Shown here one piece after another: positions 4,760 to 30,268 of a DNA stretch of 64,000 nucleotides; positions within the stretch are counted from its first letter, which is position 1, and every line of letters starts with the position of its first letter. Location of the stretch: the NCBI GenBank assembly GCA_965226055.1, contig CBDDCA010000006.1, positions 224,001 to 288,000 of the forward strand, in the 5' to 3' direction. This DNA is from Spirochaetia bacterium. Lineage in GTDB: Bacteria > Spirochaetota > Spirochaetia > WTKD01 > G963693115. The notes beneath the pieces are model-generated. The model was not told where the DNA came from, searched no databases, and worked only from the letters and a program-made list of their open reading frames with translations. Position numbers and translations under genes: made by a program.

Positions 4760-5839
4760 TCAGTATACCGTAAAATTTCTATTATGCCAAGTGTGTAAAG
4801 TTCGTGTTGTAAGGAAAGTATCAACAATAAGAGGGCGCAGAGTAAGTACACAAGGATCCAGAGAGGGACTTTTTTCTTTGAGTAATACAGCAGGAGAGCC
4901 GTGTTTATAAGAGTTATAGCGTTGATGATTAAAGCTATATTGATACTCACTACTTAAGTGTAAAAAAGTACTGAGAGTAGGATTCTGCATTTTTGCATAG
5001 CATTCAGTTTCAATAAGTTTATGAGAAGCCTCGACATCAGAATTGTAAGTAGGAGAAGCATATGGGATAGTAGTATGGCGTGCCTCGTATGCCGCAAGAG
5101 AAGCAACAAAAGCAGACTGTTTTGTACTAAAAGCCCCTGAGATAAACTCAGAGCCATTATCAGTTTGAATAGTAATAGAGGAAGTATCAACGTGAAAAGA
5201 AGCAAGATGAGTAAGCAGATATTCAATAAACAAAGCGGTATGAGAAGAGCTTTTTTGAGTGGCAAAGCATATCCATAAAGCCCCCGTAGCGACATCACGT
5301 GCGGTGATTTGATACTTTGGGAGACAAAACTTGCGTAATGAGAAGTATAATTCGGGGATATCAGTAAGATATTTAATGTCTACTTGTATTTTGTGACAAA
5401 ATTGAAGTAGTGTTTTCCATAGGCGTACTTCTTGGTTTCTTTGTGCTTTTTGCTTTTTACTTGTCTTATAATACCCCATCTTTCTTAGATACTTAATAAT
5501 AGTTTTTATGGAATAAGGAATGGTATACTCTCGTTTTATATGAGAGGCAATACATCGTTGATGATAGTGCTGTAATGTTTCGCATATCTCTTTGAGTTTT
5601 AACTGATAGTAAAGTATCATAGTATCTGGATGCTCTACTGAAGCAGGACGTCTATCATAGAGCATAGCTTTAGGCTTCTCTTTGTATCTTTGCAACCACT
5701 TGCGTACGGTATTAGGAGATACATGAAAGATACGAGCAGTACTTTTGATACCGTGTTCTTTCGCAGAAAGTGCTATAGCTAAGCGTACCTTATGCAGTTC
5801 TTTTTGATTTCTTGTATTATAAAGTGTAGAGTATATCAT
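4760..5839 (-). CDS. IS481-family transposase (N-terminal HTH plus rve integrase core)
   Basis: HTH GIKSTARIFHVSPNTVRKWLQRY; DDE motifs IQVDIKY, IQTDNGSEF, NSDVEASH. Confidence 0.88.
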   Translation of the reverse strand: MIYSTLYNTRNQKELHKVRLAIALSAKEHGIKSTARIFHVSPNTVRKWLQRYKEKPKAMLYDRRPASVEHPDTMILYYQLKLKEICETLQHYHQRCIASHIKREYTIPYSIKTIIKYLRKMGYYKTSKKQKAQRNQEVRLWKTLLQFCHKIQVDIKYLTDIPELYFSLRKFCLPKYQITARDVATGALWICFATQKSSSHTALFIEYLLTHLASFHVDTSSITIQTDNGSEFISGAFSTKQSAFVASLAAYEARHTTIPYASPTYNSDVEASHKLIETECYAKMQNPTLSTFLHLSSEYQYSFNHQRYNSYKHGSPAVLLKEKSPSLDPCVLTLRPLIVDTFLTTRTLHTWHNRNFTVY

Positions 5840-5875
5840 GTACTCACCCCCTTTTTTTTGTTTTTGTTTATTATT

Positions 5876-5903
5876 TCCATGATAGTATAATTACTATCAT
5901 GGA
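5876..5903. other. Perfect 12-bp stem hairpin inside the IS upstream of the transposase
   Basis: TCCATGATAGTA-TAAT-TACTATCATGGA. Confidence 0.75.
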
Positions 5904-5954
5904 TTTTGGGGGTTCACACAAGATGGTAAAAGTACAAAAAAACTTGTATTTCTA

Positions 5955-5984
5955 TTGACAAACAAAGGATGAAAAGAATACAAT
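5955..5984 (+). promoter_or_regulatory. Sigma70-type promoter of nrdAB
   Basis: TTGACA (5955-5960), 18-bp spacer, TACAAT (5979-5984). Confidence 0.7.
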
Positions 5985-5999
5985 AAACAAAGCAATACC

Positions 6000-6047
6000 C
6001 CCCTATATGTAGTGTATAAGCCTAGCACATAACACTATATGTATGGT
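6000..6047. promoter_or_regulatory. Tandem NrdR boxes
   Basis: CCCCTATATGTAGTGT (6000-6015) and ACACTATATGTATGGT (6032-6047) fit the acaCwAtATaTwGtgt consensus, are 32 bp apart and lie upstream of nrdA. Confidence 0.8.
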
Positions 6048-6096
6048 CACGGTGCAATAACACAATTTTTATATTTAAGCAAGGGAGGAGGCCATA

Positions 6097-9000
6097 ATGC
6101 TTTTAGAAAATAACACACCAAAACACCCCCCTACGATACAGAAAGAAAGTTCATCATTGTTTACTCATGTTATAAAACGAACAGGAGAACCCCAACCATA
6201 TAACAATCAGCATATTAGTACTGCTATTCACAAAGCGTTTGTTGCCAACAATGTTCAAATTTCTCATAAAGATATTGAAGGACTTACCCACGAAGTAGAG
6301 CAAACACTTGCTACATTCCATAAAGATACAGTGCATATAGAAAAAATACAAGATACTATTGAAGAAATACTCATGAAGCACCATTTCTTTCAAGTGGCAA
6401 AACGCTTTATTATCTATCGACAAAAACATGCCGAAGAACGTCTCAATCAATCGCTTAAGAATCAAAAAAAAATACATACTCTTTCGGTAAAAAAAAGAGA
6501 TGGAACAAATGTATCGTTTGATAGTAATAAAATTATCAACACATTAAAACGAGTAAGTAAGGATATTGATATAGACACAGTATCTTTATCTGTTATTACC
6601 CATGAACTAGAACGAAATATATTTGATGGTATACACACATCAGAGTTAGAAGAAGCCCTTATTTTATCATGTGTTGCATTTATAGAACGAAACCCCAGTT
6701 ATGATACTATTGCAAAACGCTTACTCTTACAAAAAGTATATAAGAAAGTCATACCTACCATATCTCAAAAACAGAGAACAGAAGCTATACAAGCATCATT
6801 TATCACACAAATAAAAAAAGGGGTAGAGTATGGATACTTTACAAAACAATTATTAGAGTTTGATTTAGAAACTATTGCAAACGCAATAGACCCAAAACGA
6901 GATGAAGAATTTAAGTATTTAGGATTACAGACATTATGCGACCGATACTTTGTATCGCACAATAGAACATACATAGAAACCCCTCAAGCATTTTGGATGA
7001 GGGTAGCCATGGGGCTTGCTTTACATGAAGAACAAAAAGAAGAGCAAGCTATAAAATTTTATAATCTCATTTCTCAGTTATACTACATCCCTTCCACTCC
7101 AACCTTATTTCATTCGGGGATGGCACACCCACAGCTTAGCTCCTGTTATATTAGTACTATATCTGATAATCTTCAGAACATATTTAAGTGTATTGGAGAC
7201 AATGCACAGATGGCTAAGTGGTCAGGAGGAATTGGAAACGACTGGACACCCATACGTGCCACTAATGCTCTTATTAAAAGCACAAATGTAGAAAGTCAAG
7301 GAGTCATCCCGTTCTTAAAGATTGCAAACGATACTACTCTTGCAATAAATCGTAGTGGAAAAAGACGCGGTGCTACCTGTGCGTATCTTGAGACATGGCA
7401 TTTAGATATTGAAGATTTTCTTGATCTACGAAGAAATACTGGAGATGAACGTAGAAGAACACACGATATGAATACTGCGGTATGGATTCCTGATTTATTT
7501 ATGAAACGAGTATTGGAAGAAAAAGAATGGACATTGTTTTCACCAGATGATGTACCTGATCTTCATGATAGTTATGGAAAAGATTTTGAATACAAATATG
7601 CTCATTATGAAGAAAAAACACGTACAGGTGAACTCCCCCATTGTAAGAAAGTACCAGCACTTACGCTTTGGCGAAAAATTCTTTCTCGTCTTTTTGAAAC
7701 TGGGCATCCTTGGATAACATTTAAGGATCCCTGTAACATACGCAGCCCTCAAGATCATGTAGGAGTAGTACATAGCAGTAACCTTTGTACAGAAATTACC
7801 CTTAACAACTCAGAAGAAGAAACTGCAGTATGTAATTTAGGATCGATAAACCTTAAAAAGCACTGTGATGTAGATGGTATAAACCAGTATCTCTTATCAG
7901 AGACAATAAAAACGGCCATACGGATGCTTGATAATGTCATAGATATTAATTTTTATCCTACAAAAGAGGCAAAAAACAGTAATCTTAAACATAGACCTAT
8001 AGGGTTGGGACTTATGGGGATACAGGACGCATTGTTTACTCTGCGCATCCCTTTTGATTCTCCTAAAGCATTGGATTTTGTCGATTCTACAATGGAATAT
8101 ATATCATATAATGCTATACTTTCCTCTTCTGAGCTTGCAAAAGAAAGAGGAGCATATGAAACTTTTAAGGGATCAAAGTGGGATAGAGGCTTACTTCCTC
8201 ATGATACCGTAGCATTACTAGAAGAAGAACGTGGAATGCCCATAGAGGTAAATCGTAATTCATATCTCAACTGGGAACCAGTACGAGCGAGTATTACACA
8301 ATATGGAATGAGAAACAGTAATACTATGGCTATTGCTCCTACTGCCACTATATCTAATATTGCAGGATGCTTTCCTTGTATTGAGCCTATTTATAAAAAT
8401 ATATATGTAAAATCAAATATGAGTGGTGAATTTACCATACTTAATAGTTATCTCGTACAAGATATTCAACAAAGAGGATTATGGTCCCAAACCATGCTTG
8501 ACAAAATAAAATATTATGATGGAAATATTGATTTTATTGATGAAATTCCACAGGAATTAAAATCTCTCTACAAAGAAGTATTTGATATAGACCCCTTAAC
8601 ACTGCTAAAACTTACTGCGACACGAAGTAAATGGATAGATCAAAGTCAATCTCATAATGTATTTATCAAAGGAGTATCAGGAAAACGCCTTCATGACACG
8701 TATATAGCAGCATGGAAAATGGGATTAAAAACTACCTATTATTTGCGTTCTTTAGCAGCGACACAAATAGAAAAATCGACTCTTGATGCAAAAGAATATG
8801 GATATACGCAAAAAAGAAAATATATTACTACAGCCGATACTTCAACTGAAACAGCACCCTCTTCGCCCTCTCCTACTGCAACGCAAGACAGTACAGAAAT
8901 ACATACACAGGACACTGTTACGGCAAAAAATAATACTACAAGCAACGATATGGTACAGCGCATTATACAACAAGCAAATCAATCATCACAGCATACTATA

Positions 9001-9135
9001 CCATCTCAAACAGAAACTAAACAAGAAGAAAATAACCAATGGTTACCGAAAGAACAGCAAATTAACAGTAGTTCAATGATTTCACCAAATGCTATCTGCA
9101 GTCTTTTAGATCCTTCCTGTGAATCATGCCAATAA
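6097..9135 (+). CDS. nrdA: Ribonucleoside-diphosphate reductase alpha subunit with two N-terminal ATP cones
   Basis: VIKRTG and VKKRDG ATP cones, PQLSSCY, SSNLCTEI, APTATIS, KTTYYLRS, C-terminal CSLLDPSCESCQ. Confidence 0.97.
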   Translation: MLLENNTPKHPPTIQKESSSLFTHVIKRTGEPQPYNNQHISTAIHKAFVANNVQISHKDIEGLTHEVEQTLATFHKDTVHIEKIQDTIEEILMKHHFFQVAKRFIIYRQKHAEERLNQSLKNQKKIHTLSVKKRDGTNVSFDSNKIINTLKRVSKDIDIDTVSLSVITHELERNIFDGIHTSELEEALILSCVAFIERNPSYDTIAKRLLLQKVYKKVIPTISQKQRTEAIQASFITQIKKGVEYGYFTKQLLEFDLETIANAIDPKRDEEFKYLGLQTLCDRYFVSHNRTYIETPQAFWMRVAMGLALHEEQKEEQAIKFYNLISQLYYIPSTPTLFHSGMAHPQLSSCYISTISDNLQNIFKCIGDNAQMAKWSGGIGNDWTPIRATNALIKSTNVESQGVIPFLKIANDTTLAINRSGKRRGATCAYLETWHLDIEDFLDLRRNTGDERRRTHDMNTAVWIPDLFMKRVLEEKEWTLFSPDDVPDLHDSYGKDFEYKYAHYEEKTRTGELPHCKKVPALTLWRKILSRLFETGHPWITFKDPCNIRSPQDHVGVVHSSNLCTEITLNNSEEETAVCNLGSINLKKHCDVDGINQYLLSETIKTAIRMLDNVIDINFYPTKEAKNSNLKHRPIGLGLMGIQDALFTLRIPFDSPKALDFVDSTMEYISYNAILSSSELAKERGAYETFKGSKWDRGLLPHDTVALLEEERGMPIEVNRNSYLNWEPVRASITQYGMRNSNTMAIAPTATISNIAGCFPCIEPIYKNIYVKSNMSGEFTILNSYLVQDIQQRGLWSQTMLDKIKYYDGNIDFIDEIPQELKSLYKEVFDIDPLTLLKLTATRSKWIDQSQSHNVFIKGVSGKRLHDTYIAAWKMGLKTTYYLRSLAATQIEKSTLDAKEYGYTQKRKYITTADTSTETAPSSPSPTATQDSTEIHTQDTVTAKNNTTSNDMVQRIIQQANQSSQHTIPSQTETKQEENNQWLPKEQQINSSSMISPNAICSLLDPSCESCQ

Positions 9136-9166
9136 AAAATAGAAAAAAATAAAAAAAGGAGCATAT

Positions 9167-10165
9167 ATGCCTATTATCAATAATAATAAAACTGACCCTA
9201 ATAAAATTCTCCCTATGACCTATCATTGGGCAAGAGAACACTATAAAGAAGGAGTAGCCAATAATTGGACTCCTGAAGAAATTCCTATGCAACAAGATAT
9301 TGAACAATGGAAATCTTCAAATGTATTAAGCGATACCGAACGCAGATTGATATTATGGAACATAGGCTTTTTTTCAACAGCAGAATCCCTTACTGCAAAC
9401 AATATTGTATTAGCAATGTACACTCATATAACGAATCCTGAATGTCGTCAATATATGCTACGCCAAGCATACGAAGAAGCAATACATACTGATACTTTCA
9501 TTTATTGCTGTGATTCACTTGGACTTGACCCTGATACTATTTTTGGTATGTATGAAACAATACCTTCCATAAAAGAGAAGGATGATTTTGTTGTAGAACT
9601 CACAAAAAACGTATTTTCTCCTAACTTTACTACTGTAGGAGATGAAAACATACAACGCTTTGTACACGATCTTATAGGATATTATATTATTATGGAAGGC
9701 ATTTATTTTTATGCTGGATTTGCTATGATGTTAGCATTAAAACGCCAAAATAAAATGATAGGGGTAGGAGAACAGTTTGAGTATATTATGAGAGACGAAA
9801 GTATACACCTTGCATTTGGAGCAAATCTTATCAATACAATTGTTGCAGAAAACCCACAGATATGGACAGAACCATTTAAGCAAGAAATACTCTCTCTTAT
9901 TTCACAAGCAGTAGTACTTGAAAAACAATATGCTGTTGACGCCTGTCCTGAAGGAATACTCGGAATAAATGCTGATCAGTTTTGCAATTATGTTGAACAT
10001 ATTGCAGATAGACGCCTCGAAAGAATACATCTTCCTACACTATACAACAAAGAAAATCCATTTCCATGGATGAGCCAATCTACTGATTTATCAAAAGAGA
10101 AAAATTTCTTTGAAACTCGCGTAACAGAATATCAAGTGGGACAAAAACTAGAATGGGATGAATAA
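9167..10165 (+). CDS. nrdB: Ribonucleotide reductase beta subunit, class Ic (R2c) signature
   Basis: GFFSTAESL, EEAIHTDTFIY (Phe at the radical-Tyr site), MEGIYFYAGF, RDESIH, KEKNFFETRVTEYQ. Confidence 0.95.
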   Translation: MPIINNNKTDPNKILPMTYHWAREHYKEGVANNWTPEEIPMQQDIEQWKSSNVLSDTERRLILWNIGFFSTAESLTANNIVLAMYTHITNPECRQYMLRQAYEEAIHTDTFIYCCDSLGLDPDTIFGMYETIPSIKEKDDFVVELTKNVFSPNFTTVGDENIQRFVHDLIGYYIIMEGIYFYAGFAMMLALKRQNKMIGVGEQFEYIMRDESIHLAFGANLINTIVAENPQIWTEPFKQEILSLISQAVVLEKQYAVDACPEGILGINADQFCNYVEHIADRRLERIHLPTLYNKENPFPWMSQSTDLSKEKNFFETRVTEYQVGQKLEWDE

Positions 10166-10174
10166 TACATAGCA

Positions 10175-11263
10175 CTACCCTACAGTGTTCTTGTACCACT
10201 CATAGGTAGCACTAATCCCTTCTTCAATACTTGTGGTAGGTGTCCATCCAAAAGTTTGCATTCTTTCTATATCTGATAGTTTGACAAGAGTACCATCAGG
10301 TTTCGATATATCGTACCTAAACTCACCAGTATACCCTACCTGCTCTTTTATACATTCTGCTAACTCTGTAATACTATAATCAGTCCCTGAGCCAATATTA
10401 AGATGCGTGTTGCGAATCTCTGTTGTATTGTCTTTCGTATTGATTTTTGTATTGGGATGGCCTCTCTTATGTACTATCATCGAAAAATCAATATGCTTCA
10501 TAATATGAAGACATGCCTGTGCCATGTCCTCAATATAGAGTAAATCACGACGCGGTTTTCCACTACCCCATATTTCTACTGTATCTTTATGTACCCCTAT
10601 GGAGCTAAGTATTTCCTGTGCTTGCTCTTTCTTTATAGCCCCTACATTGTTTTGTATAGCATCCCACTTATTGTGTTGCAATAAATATGCTAAATATATT
10701 TTGCGTAACAAAGCAGGCAATACATGTGATGTCTTAAAATCAAAATTATCGTGTGGACCATACAGATTAGTGGGCATAGCAGTAACAAAATTAGTACCAT
10801 ACTGTATGTTATAGCTTTCACACATTTTTATACCAGCAATTTTTGCTATAGCATAGGGTTCATTTGTATACTCTAAGGGGGCCGTAAGTAAATATTCTTC
10901 CTTAATTGGTTGTAAGGTCTGTTTTGGATAAATACAGGTACTGCCTAAGAGCAGTAATTTTTTCACTCCTACTGCATAACATTGTTCAATAACATTACTT
11001 TGAATCATAATGTTTTTATAGATAAAATCAGCTCGATATATGTTGTTTGCTAAAATGCCTCCCACCTTTGCTGCAGCAAGAAAGACATACTCAGGCTTTT
11101 CTTTTTCAAAGAATTTCCGTGTTGCTTGCTGATTACATAAATCAAGCTCTTGGTGTGTTTTTACAATAATGTTTGTATACCCCTGCTGTTGCAAAGCAAT
11201 ATACAAAGCACTTCCCACTAATCCTCTGTGTCCTGCTATATAAATTTTACTTGTCTTTTCCAT
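10175..11263 (-). CDS. fcl: GDP-L-fucose synthase
   Basis: AGHRGLVGSA, AAAKVGGILAN, GSTCIYPK, TNEPYAIAK, MPTNLYGP. Confidence 0.95.
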   Translation of the reverse strand: MEKTSKIYIAGHRGLVGSALYIALQQQGYTNIIVKTHQELDLCNQQATRKFFEKEKPEYVFLAAAKVGGILANNIYRADFIYKNIMIQSNVIEQCYAVGVKKLLLLGSTCIYPKQTLQPIKEEYLLTAPLEYTNEPYAIAKIAGIKMCESYNIQYGTNFVTAMPTNLYGPHDNFDFKTSHVLPALLRKIYLAYLLQHNKWDAIQNNVGAIKKEQAQEILSSIGVHKDTVEIWGSGKPRRDLLYIEDMAQACLHIMKHIDFSMIVHKRGHPNTKINTKDNTTEIRNTHLNIGSGTDYSITELAECIKEQVGYTGEFRYDISKPDGTLVKLSDIERMQTFGWTPTTSIEEGISATYEWYKNTVG

Positions 11264-22398: not shown

Positions 22399-23490
22399 AT
22401 GAAAACATTAAAAAATTCTATTGATACAAAAATACTAGAAACACGTAACAAAGAACGCTTAAAAGACAAAAATGATCCTCGTGGGATGTATTTTAGAGAT
22501 GCCACTGCTATTATTCATAGCACCCCTTTTCGAAGATTAAAGAAAAAAACACAAGTTTTTTTTGCTCCTAGTAATGACCACATTTGCACTCGATTAGAAC
22601 ATGTGTTACATGTTGCTACTATTGCTGTATCTATCTGTAAAGGACTTCACTTAAATAGTGACTTAGCGTGGGCAATAGGATTAGGACATGATCTAGGACA
22701 TACCCCTTTTGGACATCTCGGAGAATCAATACTGAACGATTTTAGCACCCACTCTTTTTGTCATGAACTTCATTCTTTACGGGTAGTTGACACATTATAC
22801 GCACTAAATCTCTGTTATGCAGTTCGTGATGGTATAGTAAGTCATTGCGGAGAAAAATTTGAACAAAAAATCAACCCTACGCATCAAGCAAACGATATAG
22901 CAGCGTATCAAGACAGAAGTCATTATCCTGCAACCTACGAAGGATGTATAGTACGCATGGCAGATAAAATAGCGTACCTTGGAAGAGATTATGAAGATGC
23001 AATAAAACTCGGCATCATCCCATCAAATACACTCCCTGTTAATGTTACCCGCATTTTTGATCATGAAAATAACTCCAATATTATCAATACTTTCGCAAAA
23101 GATCTTATACAATACACACGTCAAACTGGAGAAGTAGGATTTTCCAACGAAGTATTTGAAGCACTTGTTTCCTTTAAGGAATTTAATTACACACGCATCT
23201 ATAAAAGTGACTATATTCTTGAACAACGAGAAAAAGTCACTCACCTTCTAAAAGTTATACTTGCATTTCTTATTGAAGAAGTCACAAAAAATACCTCCAA
23301 CGAATCTGCGTACCTTAACTCAAAATTGCATATCATAAAAGGACTAGGAAACCATCTTATAAAGTATGGAAATCTCTATAACCTCGACAATACAGAAGAG
23401 CAAAAAATTTTTATTATTGATTATGTAGCAAGTATGACTGATGATTATGTAATAAAAACAAGTAAAGAAGTACTATACCCTCTTACCTAA
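22399..23490 (+). CDS. HD-domain dNTP triphosphohydrolase (dGTPase-like)
   Basis: FRRLKKKTQVF, TRLEH, GHDLGHTPFGHLGE, ADKIAY, DYVASMTD. Confidence 0.92.
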   Translation: MKTLKNSIDTKILETRNKERLKDKNDPRGMYFRDATAIIHSTPFRRLKKKTQVFFAPSNDHICTRLEHVLHVATIAVSICKGLHLNSDLAWAIGLGHDLGHTPFGHLGESILNDFSTHSFCHELHSLRVVDTLYALNLCYAVRDGIVSHCGEKFEQKINPTHQANDIAAYQDRSHYPATYEGCIVRMADKIAYLGRDYEDAIKLGIIPSNTLPVNVTRIFDHENNSNIINTFAKDLIQYTRQTGEVGFSNEVFEALVSFKEFNYTRIYKSDYILEQREKVTHLLKVILAFLIEEVTKNTSNESAYLNSKLHIIKGLGNHLIKYGNLYNLDNTEEQKIFIIDYVASMTDDYVIKTSKEVLYPLT

Positions 23491-24483
23491 ATGTAAAAAA
23501 CGCTTATACTGTCTCCTCTTTAGTACATGCAACTGATAGAGATTATATAAAAATAAGCTCAATAAAAATTCACTTGATATAGCAAAAGATTCTCGTATCT
23601 CTGCCTCACAATTTACAGCAAGCACAAATATATCTTGCATTATTTGCAAACTCATATCTTCAAGAAACAGCTTAAATGGTTCTTGACGTGATATACCTCG
23701 TATATTTAGTGAATCACAGGCTTGCTTAAACCCTATTCCTTGTTCCTTTTTGAGCATAATTTGTAAAGCATTTTTTAGCTGATATAAAATTCCTCCAAAT
23801 ATACTCTGACTTTTTTCTCCTGCTTCAATCATGGTTTTTATATCATTACATGCATTATTATAATCTCGTTTTGCTATAGCATGAAATAAAGTAAAAGCAT
23901 TTTCTTTCTTATAATGAGTAAACCAAGATTCAATATGAGTAGAACGAATAGGATTAGTAGGATGTTGTTGTACAAAATTATAAATTTGCTGTAAAAAATT
24001 ATCCAGTTCAGCAAGATTTTCAGCAACAAAATATTGCAGTACATCAATAGCATCGCGTGTAAAATGTAACCCTTTATCTTGAATGTTTTTTATCAGATAC
24101 CGAAAATACTCATCATCACGTAAAGGCCAAAAAATTTTCTTTTGCGTTGTATCAACAATATCTAAATCACGATGAATCTTTACTTCATCTGAGATCATTA
24201 TAATAAAACAATCTACACTTTTTTGTAAATGCTGGCCTAGTATGCGAGCATCATTGACAGAAAGCTCATTTATTTGCTTTATCACTATCCCTCGTTCACT
24301 TTCAAACAAAGAGGGAGTGGAGATATAATCACATATCTGTTCAATAGTATCAAAGCCACAAATAAATAGCTTAAAGCGATCTATATTCTTATTTTTTCTT
24401 ATAATCAGAGATTTTAAGTTTTGAAAAAATTCATTTTTTTTCCCTAGTTCTGGCCCTAACAGCAACCAAATATTATTCTTCAT
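23473..24483 (-). CDS. holA: DNA polymerase III delta subunit
   Basis: WLLLGPELGKK N-terminus, PSLF, KKIFW, ENAFTLF; start placed at ATG 24483. Confidence 0.8.
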   Translation of the reverse strand: MKNNIWLLLGPELGKKNEFFQNLKSLIIRKNKNIDRFKLFICGFDTIEQICDYISTPSLFESERGIVIKQINELSVNDARILGQHLQKSVDCFIIMISDEVKIHRDLDIVDTTQKKIFWPLRDDEYFRYLIKNIQDKGLHFTRDAIDVLQYFVAENLAELDNFLQQIYNFVQQHPTNPIRSTHIESWFTHYKKENAFTLFHAIAKRDYNNACNDIKTMIEAGEKSQSIFGGILYQLKNALQIMLKKEQGIGFKQACDSLNIRGISRQEPFKLFLEDMSLQIMQDIFVLAVNCEAEIRESFAISSEFLLSLFLYNLYQLHVLKRRQYKRFLHLGKRV

Positions 24484-24742
24484 TTGCAAATTTATTATCA
24501 AATAATAACGCTAGCTTTTCTGTTACCTGTGCTTCATCTTCTCCTACCGCTTGAATAATAAGCTCTGTGCCAAAACCAGCTCCTAATGTGAGTACTCCCA
24601 TAATTGATTTTGCATTTATCAAATTACCTTCTCTTCCGATATACACTTCAGAGTTGTATATTGCACATGTCTTCACAATGAGAGAAGATGGTCTCGCATG
24701 AAGCCCTGCTTTATTTTTAACTGTAACTGTTATTTTTACCAT
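24473..24742 (-). CDS. ptsH: Phosphocarrier protein HPr
   Basis: GLHARPSS (His15) and NAKSIMG (Ser46). Confidence 0.95.
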   Translation of the reverse strand: MVKITVTVKNKAGLHARPSSLIVKTCAIYNSEVYIGREGNLINAKSIMGVLTLGAGFGTELIIQAVGEDEAQVTEKLALLFDNKFANEE

Positions 24743-25680
24743 AAAAATGGATCCTCTTTTCCATGATACCCCATTAGGCGTATTCTGTGTTGTAAAGTAG
24801 CAACTTCTATAAGCATAGAAATATTACGACCAGGTTTTACTATCATTTCTATATTCGGTAGCGAAATCCCTAAAATATCAACAGTCTTATTTTCTCCCAA
24901 CCTATCAACTTTTTTTTCATAACTAAAACCTACACTTTGATCAAGCAATGTTATAACCAAACTCAGTACCTTTTTATCAATAGTTGAGCTTATACCAAAA
25001 ATCTGTGCAATATTTATGATACCTATCCCTCGTATTTCAATATGATGTTTATACTGGCTTGAAGTTTTAATAGCTTGTCCTTGTATATAATTTCCTTCAA
25101 TCTTCTGTAACTCCACCACATCATCTGCAACTAACCGATGCGAATCTTTTTCAAGCAATTCCAATGCTACTTCACTTTTTCCAACACCACTTTTCCCTTG
25201 AATAAGTACTCCTATATCAAACACTTCAAGAAAAGTACCATGCACATGTTTTTTTTCAGAAAAAAGAATAGTAAGAATTCTAAATAACACAACATTTAGC
25301 TCATATGTCAATAAATCACTTAGTAGAAGGGGACAATTATGTTCTTCACAAATATCTATAAAGGTCTGTGGTATAGATACATTCTTAGCATTTGGCACAA
25401 TACAACAAGGAATAGTATGCTGAAACAATGCATCAAGCACCTTGCGTATCATTCCTTTGCTCTCCATATCTCGCAAATATGCAATTTCTCCCCTTCCAAA
25501 CAGTTGTATTCTCTGCTCTCCAAACTCATAGAAATTCTGAGTTAACGAAAGGCCAGGACGATTGATTGCATTTACTACTTCGTTATGCAACCCTTTATGA
25601 CCAGATATACAAATAAGAGACAAATTAAACTCTTTTTTCGGAGCTTCTCGTAAAATATCAATAACTCTTGGATTAGTCAT
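24736..25680 (-). CDS. hprK: HPr(Ser) kinase/phosphorylase
   Basis: INRPGL, Walker A GKSGVGKSE, LVADD, EIRGIGII, PGRN; start probably ATG 25680 overlapping the rpoN stop. Confidence 0.93.
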   Translation of the reverse strand: MTNPRVIDILREAPKKEFNLSLICISGHKGLHNEVVNAINRPGLSLTQNFYEFGEQRIQLFGRGEIAYLRDMESKGMIRKVLDALFQHTIPCCIVPNAKNVSIPQTFIDICEEHNCPLLLSDLLTYELNVVLFRILTILFSEKKHVHGTFLEVFDIGVLIQGKSGVGKSEVALELLEKDSHRLVADDVVELQKIEGNYIQGQAIKTSSQYKHHIEIRGIGIINIAQIFGISSTIDKKVLSLVITLLDQSVGFSYEKKVDRLGENKTVDILGISLPNIEMIVKPGRNISMLIEVATLQHRIRLMGYHGKEDPFLW

Positions 25681-26986
25681 TTTGTAATAATTTCCTGTAT
25701 TTTGCAACTGTTCTTCTTGCTACAACAAGACCTTGTTTTTCTAACTGTTCACTTATCATCCTATCAGATAAATGTTTTTTTCCTTTATATTGTGCTACTA
25801 TATTCGCAATACTTTCAATAACTTTAGAAGAAAATACTTTTTGTACTTCATCTCGCTGTGTAAAAAACTTTTGCAAAGGAAGCAATCCTTGTGGAGTTTC
25901 AACAAATTTACGCCCCACTATACGAGACACAGTAGATATATGTACCTGCAATATCTCTGCAACCTCCTTTTGAGAAAGTGGGAGTAAATCTTTTGTTTTA
26001 GAAAGCAAAAAATCTTTTTGCATATTTACTACATATATTACTACTTTTTCAAAAATATATTCTCTATACCGCAACCCTTCTATAAATTGTTCGGCATTTC
26101 TTATCATTTCTTCTGCTGCTTTTTTGGTTTCTTTATCCTCTTTTGTTGTCAATCTACTGATATCTTCACTCACAGTGAGGACTGGAATAATATCATTGTT
26201 TACTTCTACTCGGAGAGTTTCTCCTTCTACCCTCACAACTGCATCTGGTACAATAGCATCATGTATTTTATACGATTGATGCATATAAATATATCCAGGA
26301 TAAGGAGTTACATAATGAAGTACTTGTTGAAGTATCTTATCATTTTGAAATTTCTGTACAAAATCTTGCTCTATGGAAGGATTCATATTTTGATGATATA
26401 ACAAAGCACAATACTCTTCTAATTTCTGTTTTTCTTCATCACTAAGAGATAACTGCTCTGCTTGTAATAAAATACTTTCACTTTCGTTCCAGACAGCACA
26501 ACCAACAGGGCTTAACAGCTGAACAATTTTCTGCACCTTAGTAATATTAGTTTCATTCGCTCCATCAATCACCCGACACAGAAACAATGGATCATCACAC
26601 AAAAAACCACGATCGTCTAAATTATCAATGATCATCTCACCTATCTCTATGGCAGTATCATCTAAATTTTCCATATGCAGCTGCCATTTTAAGTGTTCTG
26701 CAAGCGTTTTAGGGGCTTCCAGTAAGTTCTCAAGTTCAATGGTAAATGAATTTCCCGTTGTCGAAATTATTGTTGGGCCATTAAATTTTTCACTTTCAAG
26801 ATATTCAAGACTTGTATACTGAGGTTCTAGCTCTATATCAAGTGCAGGATTGTTCTGAACCTCTTTTAAGATTTCTTCTCGTAATTGTAAAACAGGGTAA
26901 GTAAGCAAAGACAATTTTTGAAGCATCACCGAAGACATTACCATGCCCTGTGATAATTTCTGTGATTGCTGTAATGTATGTTCCAT
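25673..26986 (-). CDS. rpoN: RNA polymerase sigma-54 factor
   Basis: NPALD, LDDRGFL, STVSR, RpoN box ARRTVAKYR. Confidence 0.93.
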   Translation of the reverse strand: MEHTLQQSQKLSQGMVMSSVMLQKLSLLTYPVLQLREEILKEVQNNPALDIELEPQYTSLEYLESEKFNGPTIISTTGNSFTIELENLLEAPKTLAEHLKWQLHMENLDDTAIEIGEMIIDNLDDRGFLCDDPLFLCRVIDGANETNITKVQKIVQLLSPVGCAVWNESESILLQAEQLSLSDEEKQKLEEYCALLYHQNMNPSIEQDFVQKFQNDKILQQVLHYVTPYPGYIYMHQSYKIHDAIVPDAVVRVEGETLRVEVNNDIIPVLTVSEDISRLTTKEDKETKKAAEEMIRNAEQFIEGLRYREYIFEKVVIYVVNMQKDFLLSKTKDLLPLSQKEVAEILQVHISTVSRIVGRKFVETPQGLLPLQKFFTQRDEVQKVFSSKVIESIANIVAQYKGKKHLSDRMISEQLEKQGLVVARRTVAKYRKLLQND

Positions 26987-27017
26987 TAATGTTTCCTATA
27001 ATGCTTATATTTCAAAA

Positions 27018-28103
27018 CTACTGCAACGACGCTTCTCCAGTCATATACCATGTTACTTGATCCTTAAACGATTCCTGTGTCGGACGAAACTTAATTCCTA
27101 AAGTTTCTTGTATTTTACTTGAATTTACCCGTAAACAACTTCGCAATACTTTCACTGATCCTGTCGTAAATATAGGATGTCCTCCAAAGCACATTGACCA
27201 AAACTCAAATACAATACCTATTCCATACATAATCCATAAAGGTATCTTAAAAAACGGCTTCGGTATATTGCTTACTTCTTGTAATGTTTTCATCATAGTA
27301 TGCACAGAAACATACTCCCCTGCCGCTATATAATAATTACTATCTTCTCGTTTATTTACTAACATAATTGTAGCATTCGCAACATCCCTAACATCAACAA
27401 AACAAAATCCTCCTTTCGCTGGATATGCTCCTAACCTTCTTTTAAGATACATTTTTACCATATTCCCTATATCCGATGTTCCTTCATCAAAAGGACCTAT
27501 AATCCCTCCAGGACTAACAATGCTGACAGAACATTCATGCTCTTGTTTATACAATGCACCAAAAGAATATACCATTTGTGATGCAATAGCCTTACTTTTT
27601 CCATAAGGAATAAGTGCACACTCAGGATGAAATCCCTCCATTTCATCATGCACTCCTTCGTGTACCTTTCCCATAGCTTCTACTGAGCTAATATAGACTA
27701 ACTTTTTTATCCCCAACTTTTTACACACAGTAAGGACATTCTTCGTGCCTTCTATATTTACTTTAGCCAACTGCTTTTTTTGATAATTTACAATAGAAAC
27801 AAATGATGCCGCATGTATTATTCCATCAACTCCCTCACATAAACGCTCTACATCTTCAATCACACTAACATCACCATCAACAATACTGATATATTTATCA
27901 GCTTGAAACAACTCTCTATTTCTAGAAGAATGACGTAGAAGACGCACATAATAATTTTGTTCCCTCAGCTTTCTTACAATTACCGAACCTAAAAAACCAA
28001 AGCCTCCTGTTACTGCAATACACTTTTTTTTATTTTTTGTTGCTGATTTTTTTGTAGTATGTGTGCTACTCGTTTTAGCATTTTTTATTTCTTTTGTTCT
28101 CAT
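27018..28103 (-). CDS. Extended SDR, NAD-dependent epimerase/dehydratase (3beta-HSD/DFR-like)
   Basis: VTGGFGFLG, HAAS, VNIEGTKNV, YISS, YGKSK catalytic motif. Confidence 0.85.
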   Translation of the reverse strand: MRTKEIKNAKTSSTHTTKKSATKNKKKCIAVTGGFGFLGSVIVRKLREQNYYVRLLRHSSRNRELFQADKYISIVDGDVSVIEDVERLCEGVDGIIHAASFVSIVNYQKKQLAKVNIEGTKNVLTVCKKLGIKKLVYISSVEAMGKVHEGVHDEMEGFHPECALIPYGKSKAIASQMVYSFGALYKQEHECSVSIVSPGGIIGPFDEGTSDIGNMVKMYLKRRLGAYPAKGGFCFVDVRDVANATIMLVNKREDSNYYIAAGEYVSVHTMMKTLQEVSNIPKPFFKIPLWIMYGIGIVFEFWSMCFGGHPIFTTGSVKVLRSCLRVNSSKIQETLGIKFRPTQESFKDQVTWYMTGEASLQ

Positions 28104-28143
28104 ATGTATGAAAATACCTCTTTACTTTCATTGTACACCATAA

Positions 28144-29025
28144 CTACATAATAAATGGAATAATTGCTTTTCGATTTTTTGGATAATCAGAAAAAGTATT
28201 GCGATACCATGTAAGATTAGCAAAAGCACGTGGCACTAAATTTGCCATAGTAAACAGTGCAAAAGCTACTCCAGCAATAGACCATGTCAATAAAGCCCAT
28301 CCCCACCATTGTAGTATCTCACCAAAATAATTTGGTGAAGCTACATATGTATGTAAAAATCGTTGTGGAATTCCATACCCATTATGTGAAACTTTTTTCA
28401 TCCGTCTCAGTTCTCTATCACTTTGTACATGTATATAAAATCCAATAAAAAACAACACTATTCCCACGATCGATGTAGGAGAAACAAGAAAAGAATATAT
28501 GAGGTTTGCATCCACAAGAAACTGAGGGCTTTGAGATGATCTCTGAAAAAACAGAAACCATCCATTTATGTACCCATTTATTATATTAAACAATAATCCC
28601 ATAAAAGGAACATAGAATCTAAATTCATTTTTTTTATTATCAAACAAATATGTGAAAATAAAAGTCCTATAGAGATAATGAAATTCCCAAATAAAAATAA
28701 AAATAGCAAAGCCTAAAAATACAAGCATATCAACACGCCCAGTAACAAGCCCAATAATACCTACATCACTTATACACCACAAAATAAAAATAGTAAGTAC
28801 AGCAGGAATTTCCATAATAAGCCATCCTGTCCTTTTCGATAACAATGGAAATGAGAGTTTTTTTGACATACTCTTTTGTACCTGTGCTTTCCCTCCCTTT
28901 AAGGGCAGTGTATGTACATGCCTTCCGTACGGAGCGGTTATAAAAAACAATGAAATAAAAATAACAGGAGAAAGAATAAACATACTATGTAACAATACAG
29001 AGGCAATTACATCAAACATACTCAT
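28144..29025 (-). CDS. 3-oxo-5-alpha-steroid 4-dehydrogenase (steroid 5-alpha-reductase, SRD5A-like)
   Basis: APYGRH, GWLIMEIPA, HYLYRTFIF, HVQSD, YGIP, SPNYFGEILQW, NLVPRA, YPKNRKAIIPF; multiple TM segments. Confidence 0.9.
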   Translation of the reverse strand: MSMFDVIASVLLHSMFILSPVIFISLFFITAPYGRHVHTLPLKGGKAQVQKSMSKKLSFPLLSKRTGWLIMEIPAVLTIFILWCISDVGIIGLVTGRVDMLVFLGFAIFIFIWEFHYLYRTFIFTYLFDNKKNEFRFYVPFMGLLFNIINGYINGWFLFFQRSSQSPQFLVDANLIYSFLVSPTSIVGIVLFFIGFYIHVQSDRELRRMKKVSHNGYGIPQRFLHTYVASPNYFGEILQWWGWALLTWSIAGVAFALFTMANLVPRAFANLTWYRNTFSDYPKNRKAIIPFIM

Positions 29026-29033
29026 ACTACAAT

Positions 29034-30215
29034 TTACAAAACTTCTTCATTTATATACGATAAATACTGTGTATTAGACTTAAAAAAAGTATCTCTTAAC
29101 TCTTTTGCTTTTCTTAATGATACATTACTTCTTTGTAGATACAACATTTCTTCTTCTATCTTTTGCATACGATTTTCACTTACCGATTGTTTTATTAGAT
29201 CTTGAGCATATTCTTCTTGTAAACATAACAGCAAAGCAATATCACTGTCAGTATATGCTTGAAATATCGTTTGAAGAATACTGCTTGGCAACTTAAACAG
29301 TAGCTTCCAGTTCATAATTTTTTCTTCAATACCCATCTTTAATTCTTTGTCTTGTATAGTATCTATAAGCTGTTTTTGTTGTGAAAAAGGCATATGCGAT
29401 AAAATTTCCATCAACGCATCCACTCCACCTGTACTGACAGTGGTCTTCTTATGTTCTTCATTTTTCTTTAGTTTATCCTTTAGTACATTTCGAATAGTTT
29501 GACAGGCTTGAATATTAGGGAGCTTTCGTTTCGCAATATAGAGTATTACTTCACCCCTCTGCTCTTCGGACAGCATAGTCAAAAGAGCTGCAGATTTTGA
29601 TGATTCCATAACTTCCATTACAAAACTGATAATAGGGACGCTTTCAGTATTGATAACCGCATAAATTTCTTTTGTTGTGTACCTGTGCAAAAAAGAAAAA
29701 TCATCAGATAACTGTGAATGAACAAGCTTACGCATAAGATATGCTGCTTTTTTATCACCATATGCAGTACGATAGAGCGCTTTGATAACCTCAAGACTTG
29801 AATGATCATCAGCTATAATACGCAAAAAAGACTCCGATTCCATTTTTTCTGATGAAGGATTTAGTGATACAGTATCAGTACCCAAACCATGCAGTAGAGT
29901 GTCAGTGTGCATATCTTTCTGCTTCTGTACACGAGAAAGAATCTGTGGCGAAGCATGAGGATGTGATTGCTTATATGCATCAATAAAACGAGATATATCT
30001 TTTTCAGTAACAGTAGTATCATTATTTTTTTGAGATACCGACAGATCTTTTTTAAGTATCTGAGACAAATTAAAACGTATATGCCCATACTGACATAATG
30101 CTTCTCCTACTTTTAATGCTTGATACTCATTAAGATGTTTCAATACCTCTGCTGCTTTCATAGGTGATAGAGAAAGAAATGTTGCTGCTATTTTCTGTTT
30201 CGTAAGCGTATCCAT
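29034..30215 (-). CDS. fliG: Divergent FliG-like flagellar switch protein (FliG1-type)
   Basis: QKIAATFLSL..KAAEVLKHL N-terminus, ESVPIIS, GGVDALMEILSHM, C-terminal domain pattern. Confidence 0.7.
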   Translation of the reverse strand: MDTLTKQKIAATFLSLSPMKAAEVLKHLNEYQALKVGEALCQYGHIRFNLSQILKKDLSVSQKNNDTTVTEKDISRFIDAYKQSHPHASPQILSRVQKQKDMHTDTLLHGLGTDTVSLNPSSEKMESESFLRIIADDHSSLEVIKALYRTAYGDKKAAYLMRKLVHSQLSDDFSFLHRYTTKEIYAVINTESVPIISFVMEVMESSKSAALLTMLSEEQRGEVILYIAKRKLPNIQACQTIRNVLKDKLKKNEEHKKTTVSTGGVDALMEILSHMPFSQQKQLIDTIQDKELKMGIEEKIMNWKLLFKLPSSILQTIFQAYTDSDIALLLCLQEEYAQDLIKQSVSENRMQKIEEEMLYLQRSNVSLRKAKELRDTFFKSNTQYLSYINEEVL

Positions 30216-30268
30216 GGTAGTGTTATAATTAGTATAACAAAATTATTTATTTGAAGTATACTAAACAT

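Follow-up and report, generated by a model that had tools for sequence, protein, structure and literature searches.

A conserved pair of genes for an SRD5A-family membrane reductase and an extended short-chain dehydrogenase/reductase in a spirochaete: a candidate unit for the stepwise reduction of a steroid-like lipid

A reductase-dehydrogenase gene pair

Two adjacent genes are considered here, located between positions 27018 and 29025 of a 64,000-nucleotide stretch of contig CBDDCA010000006.1 from a Spirochaetia bacterium (assembly GCA_965226055.1); the whole of this stretch is referred to below as the window. Read in the direction of their coding strand, the minus strand, the genes encode a membrane reductase of the SRD5A family and an extended short-chain dehydrogenase/reductase (SDR). 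Together they may reduce, one step after the other, the conjugated double bond and the carbonyl group of a steroid-like lipid. A preliminary description of this DNA, made from the letters of the sequence, had presented the pair as a two-gene sterol-to-stanol module. The open reading frames (ORFs) are indeed found where it had placed them, and the motifs it had quoted, GWLIMEIPA, HYLYRT, SPNYFGE and YPKNRKAIIPF in the reductase and TGGFGFLG and YxxSK (here YGKSK) in the SDR, are all present in the translations.

The membrane reductase

The product of the first gene matches the Steroid_dh family of Pfam (PF02544) with an E-value of 2.1e-42 and a score of 145.1 bits, for a gathering cut-off of 22.6. 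When it was compared with the sequences of solved structures, matches were obtained with PbSRD5A (PDB 7c83; E 2.8e-40, 142 bits), with human SRD5A2 (PDB 7bw1; E 2.2e-28, 103 bits) and with a TECR (E 9.6e-9, 38 bits). A model of the protein calculated with AlphaFold2, having a mean predicted local distance difference test score (pLDDT) of 84.4, was aligned by Foldseek to 7c83 with a target-normalised template modelling (TM) score of 0.88 (E 3.2e-15, 31% identity) and to 7bw1 with a score of 0.84 (E 3.0e-11, 26% identity). An SRD5A1/2-like character with seven helices is supported both by the sequence and by the modelled fold.

The residues of the active site point in the same direction. E72 aligns with the catalytic glutamate of the family (E57 in human SRD5A2), Y117 with Y91, and the motif H116-Y117-x-x-R120 with H-Y91-x-x-R94; by our own count, the chain numbering in the structure alignments is offset by +4. 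None of the 15 aligned homologues departs from E72, H116, Y117 or R120, and the catalytic glutamate and tyrosine are kept in all 76 homologues from the collected loci. Eight residues of SRD5A2 are listed as NADPH contacts in the structural study (N160, D164, R171, N193, E197, R227, H231 and Y235; PMC7815742). According to our mapping through the solved-structure alignment, five of them are identical in the window reductase (D203, N232, E236, R266 and Y274). The earlier assignment of an SRD5A-like enzyme possessing the equivalents of E57 and of Y91/R94 is upheld by the Pfam match, the structure alignments and the fold.

With respect to PbSRD5A and SRD5A2, the window reductase has about 40 extra residues distributed over three insertions or loops. 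One of these, residues 40-56 (28858-28908), is lysine-rich, predicted to be disordered and modelled with low confidence. Lysine-rich segments occur in both the reductase and the SDR; they are absent from most homologues and shared by the closest metagenome relatives, the reductase of which is 69% and the SDR 74% identical to those of the window. Gene fusions of the reductase were also considered as a possible clue to function. Five long ORFs in high-GC loci turned out to carry no extra domain and were discarded as artefacts of ORF calling.

The extended SDR

The second gene product has the TGxxGxxG motif in the form TGGFGFLG and an intact Ser-Tyr-Lys catalytic centre (S140, Y167 and K171, the last two in the YxxxK motif YGKSK). 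The catalytic tyrosine and lysine are invariant in 35 of 35 reductase-linked SDRs. In the same 35 rows, the residue that follows β-strand 2 is histidine or arginine in 33 cases and leucine in one, the remaining row being truncated there; it is never acidic. According to the established rules for SDRs, a non-acidic His/Arg at this place suggests NADP(H) as the cofactor and, consequently, a preference for the reducing direction. The AlphaFold2 model has a pLDDT of 90; a lysine- and threonine-rich N-terminal tail of 27 residues (residues 1-27, 28023-28103) is of low confidence.

The preliminary description had called this protein 3β-hydroxysteroid dehydrogenase (3β-HSD)-like. Its extended SDR character and its catalytic triad were recovered, but PF01370 scores above PF01073 (107.1 and 100.3 bits, respectively) and the match to PF01073 is confined to positions 1-205 of the 280 in the model. 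Membership of the 3β-HSD/isomerase family proper was rejected, PF01073 being neither the best nor a full-length match. Among the NCBIfam models, the first match is HpnA (TIGR03466), with 182.6 bits for a cut-off of 367.65, and the second is SdmB (NF052578), with 156.1 bits for a cut-off of 600.

The SDR was also placed in phylogenetic trees. A first tree, with 52 rows, unites 28 reductase-linked and six unlinked SDRs in one clade (support 97/85), the sister group of which (98/95) consists of two SdmB-like genes of sterol-producing myxobacteria, both adjoining Rieske oxygenases. A second tree of 41 rows was built with the addition of one true SdmB (678 bits) and five true HpnA (514-518 bits); 18 rows were left out, one because it was truncated, three because of their long branches and the others as near-duplicates. 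SdmB (100/97), HpnA (95/75) and the reductase-linked SDRs (97/97) then form three clades joined by an unresolved trichotomy, so that the sister relationship to SdmB indicated by the first tree was given up. Identity with HpnA was also dismissed, the window SDR scoring below the cut-off and falling outside the clade of the five true HpnA, as was identity with SdmB, for which the score is too low, the clade is different and no Rieske oxygenase (SdmA) is found nearby. On these trees, the window SDR clade is a third sibling of HpnA and SdmB. Since both of these families are associated with triterpenoids, a polycyclic substrate is suggested, though not decisively. The preliminary description had also considered that the SDR might group with non-steroid HpnA- or DFR-type enzymes and that the pair might not be co-conserved; the SDR is instead found in a clade of its own, and the pair is co-conserved.

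The linked SDRs of SAR86 and SAR92 (L020, L064, L069, L083 and L084) make up a clade of their own with very long branches, apart from HpnA, SdmB and the main linked clade, which implies that the reductase-SDR association arose more than once. As a side observation, one locus from a member of the Sandaracinaceae (L099:1399-3951, minus strand; G045) carries HMG-CoA reductase and SdmB-like SDR domains in a single frame of 850 residues adjoining a Rieske/VanA_C oxygenase; the two domains may be genuinely fused, or the frame may simply run on in high-GC DNA.

Conservation of the pair

Among 41 related genomes, 16 contain a strong match to the reductase, and in eight of these 16 the SDR gene adjoins it. 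Of the 16 reductase-positive genomes, 12 have an SDR match at E ≤ 1.3e-27, as compared with three of the 25 reductase-negative ones, with a threshold picked after the data had been seen and genomes that are kin to each other. A broader sample of 80 named loci was drawn from at least seven phyla (Spirochaetota, Actinomycetota, Chloroflexota, Pseudomonadota, Acidobacteriota, Thermoplasmatota and unclassified lineages), those closest to the locus of the window being spirochaete metagenome-assembled genomes. In 27 of the 80, the reductase gene has a homologue of the window SDR at a distance of no more than 400 bp. The two genes are arranged as SDR-then-reductase in 14 of these loci, convergently in 11 and divergently in two; a fourth order, reductase-then-SDR, is that of the window's family. 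When neighbouring ORFs were clustered, the SDR emerged as the sole widely shared neighbour (30 of 90 loci), the next clusters being restricted to at most four loci from close kin.

Within the window's family, both genes are present in five of six genomes, and neither was seen in the sixth (G003, 85% complete). The surroundings of the pair vary: it is found behind recA/scpAB in one genome (G002) and near an ABC transporter and NIF3 in another (G004). In G005, the order reductase, SDR, rpoN, hprK, ptsH, holA is the same as in the window, and the position before rpoN is thus kept in two genera. From gene order and distribution, we conclude that the reductase and the SDR are a genuine conserved functional pair, vertically inherited within the family. 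GC content at 26-30 kb (0.33-0.35) equals that of the remainder of the window, and this uniformity, together with the inheritance of the pair, agrees with the earlier statement that no mobile-element signature is present.

In a class-level relative (L096, G017:C1:599000-616000, positions 4977-10434), the pair is part of a larger redox cluster on one strand, made up of genes for an aldo/keto reductase, a thiamine-diphosphate enzyme, the extended SDR, the reductase and a classical SDR.

Genomic context and substrate supply

The features of the locus are collected in Table 1. The reductase gene is separated from the upstream FliG-like gene by 8 bp (29026-29033) and from the SDR gene by 40 bp, and the SDR gene from rpoN by 31 bp (26987-27017). 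The tight packing in a run of fliG-like, rpoN, hprK, ptsH and holA genes, already pointed out in the preliminary description, was recovered from the sequence and from Pfam matches. A terminator-like site was looked for in the 40-bp spacer and none was found. As judged from the spacing, co-transcription of the two genes is plausible. In a scan of the region, promoter-like and terminator-like sites were not more frequent than in shuffled sequence; they therefore provide no argument against co-transcription and no demonstration of it either.

Table 1. Genes and spacer at the locus, with positions in the 64-kb window
Feature	Position	Strand	Basis or remark
Predicted SRD5A-family membrane NADPH enone reductase, 293 aa	28144..29025	-	PF02544, solved-structure matches, AlphaFold2 model; M71-E72...H116-Y117 type
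Extended SDR, 361 aa	27018..28103	-	PF01370/PF01073, NCBIfam, 3wj7, motifs, trees, AlphaFold2 model
40-bp spacer, reductase to SDR	28104..28143	-	Direct reading; AAAGAGG located 15 nt ahead of the start codon of the SDR gene
Divergent FliG-like protein, 393 aa, upstream neighbour	29034..30215	-	FliG_N/M/C domains; genomic context
Downstream run rpoN-hprK-ptsH-holA-like	23473..26986	-	Pfam
rpoN	25673-26986	-	Sigma-54 Pfam; rpoN equivalog 282 bits, cut-off 277.35
hprK (HPr kinase)	24736-25707	-	Pfam
ptsH (HPr)	24473-24742	-	Pfam
holA-like (DNA polymerase III delta)	23473-24501	-	Pfam

The FliG-like protein scores 72.8 bits with the fliG equivalog, for a cut-off of 226.7, and its FliG_N, FliG_M and FliG_C domains are all weak. 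Sister genomes have another, non-homologous gene ahead of the pair (E 0.066), so there is no conserved third gene. The start of the FliG-like gene lies 35 bp from a divergent gene for a glycosidase of family GH4, at 30251. Otherwise, the window contains housekeeping and sugar-transport genes, none of them related to steroids. Near-identical DNA for positions 27018-29025 was observed in nine public sequencing runs (X1-X9) from five to seven studies, with a share of sampled words of 0.28-1.00; none of the nine is recorded as RNA.

The genome that contains the window (G000) amounts to 2.25 Mb and is 89% complete. In this assembly, no match to SQHop_cyclase_C, indicative of a squalene or oxidosqualene cyclase, was found. 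It has tandem genes for a member of the squalene/phytoene synthase family (SQS_PSY) and for a polyprenyl synthetase (C3:142.6-144.8 kb; L091:6632-8756, minus strand), as well as two full-length genes of the Amino_oxidase family (C6:331913-333340 and C5:496416-497819). These genes could correspond to a squalene or C30-carotenoid route in this small spirochaete genome. Among the 41 relatives, SQS_PSY and the reductase occur together in eight, the reductase alone in eight, SQS_PSY alone in nine and neither in 16. A link between the pair and an endogenous triterpenoid synthesis was rejected, in view of SQS_PSY not tracking the reductase and of no cyclase having been found in the 89% complete genome. 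A link to rhodopsin and retinal was also looked for: PF01036 gave no match in the genome, in a search where the positive control did not give any match either.

Relation to known systems

PbSRD5A, which reduces progesterone with NADPH (PMC7815742), and human SRD5A2 are the closest solved references. The window reductase shares with them the Pfam family, the seven-helix fold, the catalytic glutamate and tyrosine and the H-Y-x-x-R motif; of the eight NADPH contacts, five are identical and three changed. It differs from them by a methionine in place of a signature glutamine, the three insertions mentioned above and an overall identity of 31% and 26%, respectively.

An SRD5A homologue associated with a dehydrogenase has a precedent in gut Bacteroidetes, where a three-gene cluster producing isoallolithocholic acid is described as containing a 5α-reductase, a 5β-reductase and a 3β-hydroxysteroid dehydrogenase (3β-HSDH) (bioRxiv 10.1101/2021.01.08.425963; PMC12345280). 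The resemblance concerns the combination itself, a dehydrogenase reducing the 3-ketone that is left over, and the proposed order of action. In contrast, the BaiCD-like 5β-reductase of the cluster is absent beside the window pair, the neighbours of which are the FliG-like gene and rpoN, and is absent from six related loci. The 3β-HSDH of the cluster was found as a homologue of Rumgna_00694, whereas the window reductase is partnered by an extended SDR of the HpnA/SdmB group. The 3β-HSDH of the gut cluster is presumably a classical short SDR. The sole Bacteroidota reductase among the collected loci carries Q-E at the signature site, not M-E.

Among spirochaetes, Treponema denticola is described as 5α-reducing progesterone, androstenedione and testosterone (Clark and Soory 2005-2007, cited in PMC11301207 and PMC8511811). 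Both steroid 5α-reductase activity in a spirochaete and a cluster of 5α-reductase and 3β-HSDH in Bacteroidetes are thus already in print. Regarding the pairing of the reductase with the window SDR clade, a literature search based on titles, abstracts and selected passages found no published description.

On the SDR side, SdmB is described as the dehydrogenase/decarboxylase/3-ketoreductase of sterol C-4 demethylation; it can oxidise and reduce the sterol C-3 in an NADP-dependent manner, and the Calothrix enzyme alone makes lanosterone (PMC10202945). The window SDR belongs to the same wider group of extended SDRs and has, like SdmB, a basic residue after β-strand 2. However, its partner is a membrane reductase rather than a Rieske oxygenase. 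HpnA, the hopanoid-associated extended SDR, has the same length and fold class as the window SDR and is its best NCBIfam match. The two differ by the distance to the cut-off, by the clade and by the source genome, where the squalene-hopene cyclase was not found.

A further analogy is offered by dolichol synthesis, in which DHRSX and SRD5A3 have recently been proposed to cooperate: the SDR oxidises an allylic alcohol, the SRD5A enzyme saturates the double bond and the SDR then reduces the carbonyl. The three-step, two-enzyme logic is the same. Nevertheless, that system is eukaryotic and acts on a polyprenol, with an SDR of the classical type (DHRSX) and, in SRD5A3, a reductase from another subfamily.

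Possible reaction and alternative explanations

It is proposed that the two genes, which are probably transcribed together, form a redox unit performing two actions on one hydrophobic carbonyl compound. The membrane reductase would transfer a hydride from NADPH to the β-carbon of a double bond conjugated with a carbonyl, Glu72 and Tyr117 polarising the carbonyl and protonating the enolate in the manner of SRD5A2 and PbSRD5A. The SDR, envisaged as a peripheral enzyme that uses Ser140, Tyr167 and Lys171 and probably NADP(H), would interconvert the neighbouring hydroxy and oxo groups; working in the reducing direction, it would convert the saturated ketone into an alcohol. The most likely class of substrate would be a 3-oxo-Δ4 steroid-like polycyclic lipid, transformed into a 5α-3-one and further into a 5α-3-ol. 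As no cyclase was found in the genome, this compound would come from outside the cell. To this sequential reduction of enone and ketone on an imported steroid-like lipid, we assign a probability of about 0.5. Precedents for the reduction of steroids are PbSRD5A, Treponema denticola and the Bacteroidetes cluster. A DET2 homologue of Leifsonia is described as rescuing an Arabidopsis det2 mutant (PMC11131428).

Several observations weigh against a steroid-like substrate. Characterised steroid 5α-reductases have the signature Q-E-Y, and PbSRD5A accordingly has Q-E, whereas the window reductase reads M-E-Y (M71). M-E is found at this site in 75 of 76 prokaryotic homologues from the collected loci and in all 120 of the closest database homologues of the window reductase. 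In human SRD5A2, the Q56A, Q56L and Q56R variants are described as losing activity (PMC7815742). Three of the eight NADPH contacts are substituted (N160 by H199, R171 by K210 and H231 by N270). As to the SDR, besides its preference for PF01370 and its place outside the SdmB clade, its nearest solved protein is gox2253 (3wj7, E 1.2e-30), which also comes first in the fold search and is followed by sugar epimerases and cinnamoyl-CoA reductases; the fold search retrieved gox2253 and generic extended SDRs only and gave no clue to the substrate. In 53 of the 80 named loci, the reductase has no SDR beside it, some contigs ending near the gene; among these are 19 of 22 environmental Spirochaetota loci, the other three being linked by our count. 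The pair is also common in free-living prokaryotes of marine, soil and sediment habitats (SAR86, Chloroflexota, Actinomycetota and Thermoplasmatota), for which a supply of steroids is not obvious. Finally, neither Pfam searches nor the gene content of the 64-kb window revealed a gene for sterol uptake, a sterol oxidase or an isomerase. Considering the alignments as a whole, the reductase is placed within the SRD5A family as a prokaryotic M-E-Y variant; its mechanism is probably like that of steroid 5α-reductases, although it lacks the glutamine of the signature.

The main rival keeps the logic of two enzymes and changes the lipid. The compound to be saturated would be an acyclic isoprenoid or a fatty chain with an allylic alcohol, enal or enone function, the route leading, for instance, from polyprenol through polyprenal and the dihydro-aldehyde to the dihydro-alcohol, or starting from a carotenoid-derived or fatty enal. 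This would fit the chemistry of the family, which is the 1,4-reduction of any conjugated carbonyl, and TECR is a detectable relative. The methionine at the signature site throughout the prokaryotic clade and the spread of the pair among free-living organisms, including the streamlined SAR86, speak for it too, as do the aldehyde and CoA-ester reductases among the solved relatives of the SDR (cinnamoyl-CoA reductase, kavalactone reductase) and the isoprenoid genes of the source genome, namely the synthase operon and the two Amino_oxidase genes. However, the reductase is far nearer to the SRD5A1/2 type than to TECR, SQS_PSY does not track it among the relatives, the nearest named SDR clades are linked to triterpenoids and no isoprenoid gene is found among the conserved neighbours. 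A non-steroid lipid is retained as a tentative possibility.

Returning to a steroid-like substrate, a more complete route may be imagined as a possible special case of the reduction of a 3-oxo-Δ4 lipid, with an added first step: the SDR would act as a 3β-HSD/Δ5-4 isomerase converting a host sterol into the Δ4-3-one, the reductase would form the 5α-stanone, and the SDR or another enzyme would complete a membrane stanol. Brachyspira is said to convert cholesterol into cholestanol, as an original report had it. Both cholesterol and cholestanol are described in Brachyspira membranes (PMC4683989), relatives of the SdmB type can oxidise the sterol C-3 (PMC10202945), PF01073 does match with 100.3 bits, and a genome where no cyclase was found would be compatible with the use of host sterols. 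Against such a route, the cofactor motif of NADP(H) type favours reduction, the PF01073 match ends at model position 205, nothing was found that points to a Δ5-to-Δ4 isomerase step, and the distribution of the pair is mostly environmental. The complete route is therefore held to be unlikely. As for the two-gene sterol-to-stanol module put forward at the outset, its conserved pair and the triterpenoid-linked relatives of its SDR remain, whereas its isomerase step is left with no sign in its favour, the cofactor motif does not favour an initial oxidation and the glutamine of Q-E-Y is missing. Host sterols, which that proposal had invoked, are no general explanation, because the pair is common in free-living prokaryotes.

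It might also be argued that the two genes are unrelated and lie side by side by chance in a packed housekeeping operon; in the window, the pair does sit among unrelated core genes, and the reductase is found alone in many genomes. This reading is close to refuted by the synteny, and we consider it very improbable: the genes are found side by side in different phyla and in four orders, no neighbour other than the SDR is conserved, both genes are gained or lost together in the family, and the pair changes its surroundings as one block (G002, G004, and G005 with the source genome).

Significance

One gut cluster associating an SRD5A homologue and a 3β-HSDH makes an immunoactive bile acid. The pair of the window differs from it and has a much wider distribution, being encountered from marine plankton to a spirochaete with a small genome. 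Its notable features are a reductase that reads M-E-Y in place of the published signature, the third SDR clade beside HpnA and SdmB, the NADP(H) preference that we infer for it, and the position before rpoN in two genera. Knowledge of its natural substrate would make it possible to ask whether the Q-E-Y signature is truly required for steroid 5α-reduction.

Sediment bacteria are described as converting sterols into stanols (PMC12362056). It is tempting to imagine, although we hold it to be doubtful, that the M-E-Y reductase, with the extended SDR dedicated to it, is responsible for the microbial hydrogenation of sterols to 5α-stanols in anoxic sediments, in microbial mats and in sterol-scavenging spirochaetes. 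If true, a classical geochemical proxy would find its explanation in a two-gene marker that occurs in Chloroflexota, Actinomycetota, Spirochaetota, SAR86 and some archaea, and the conversion would let spirochaetes tune their membrane sterols. More generally, the natural substrate, which may alternatively be another isoprenoid lipid, would tell whether environmental and host-associated microbes saturate sterols or steroids by means of this pair, a matter relevant to stanol biomarkers and to the way in which spirochaetes transform steroids.

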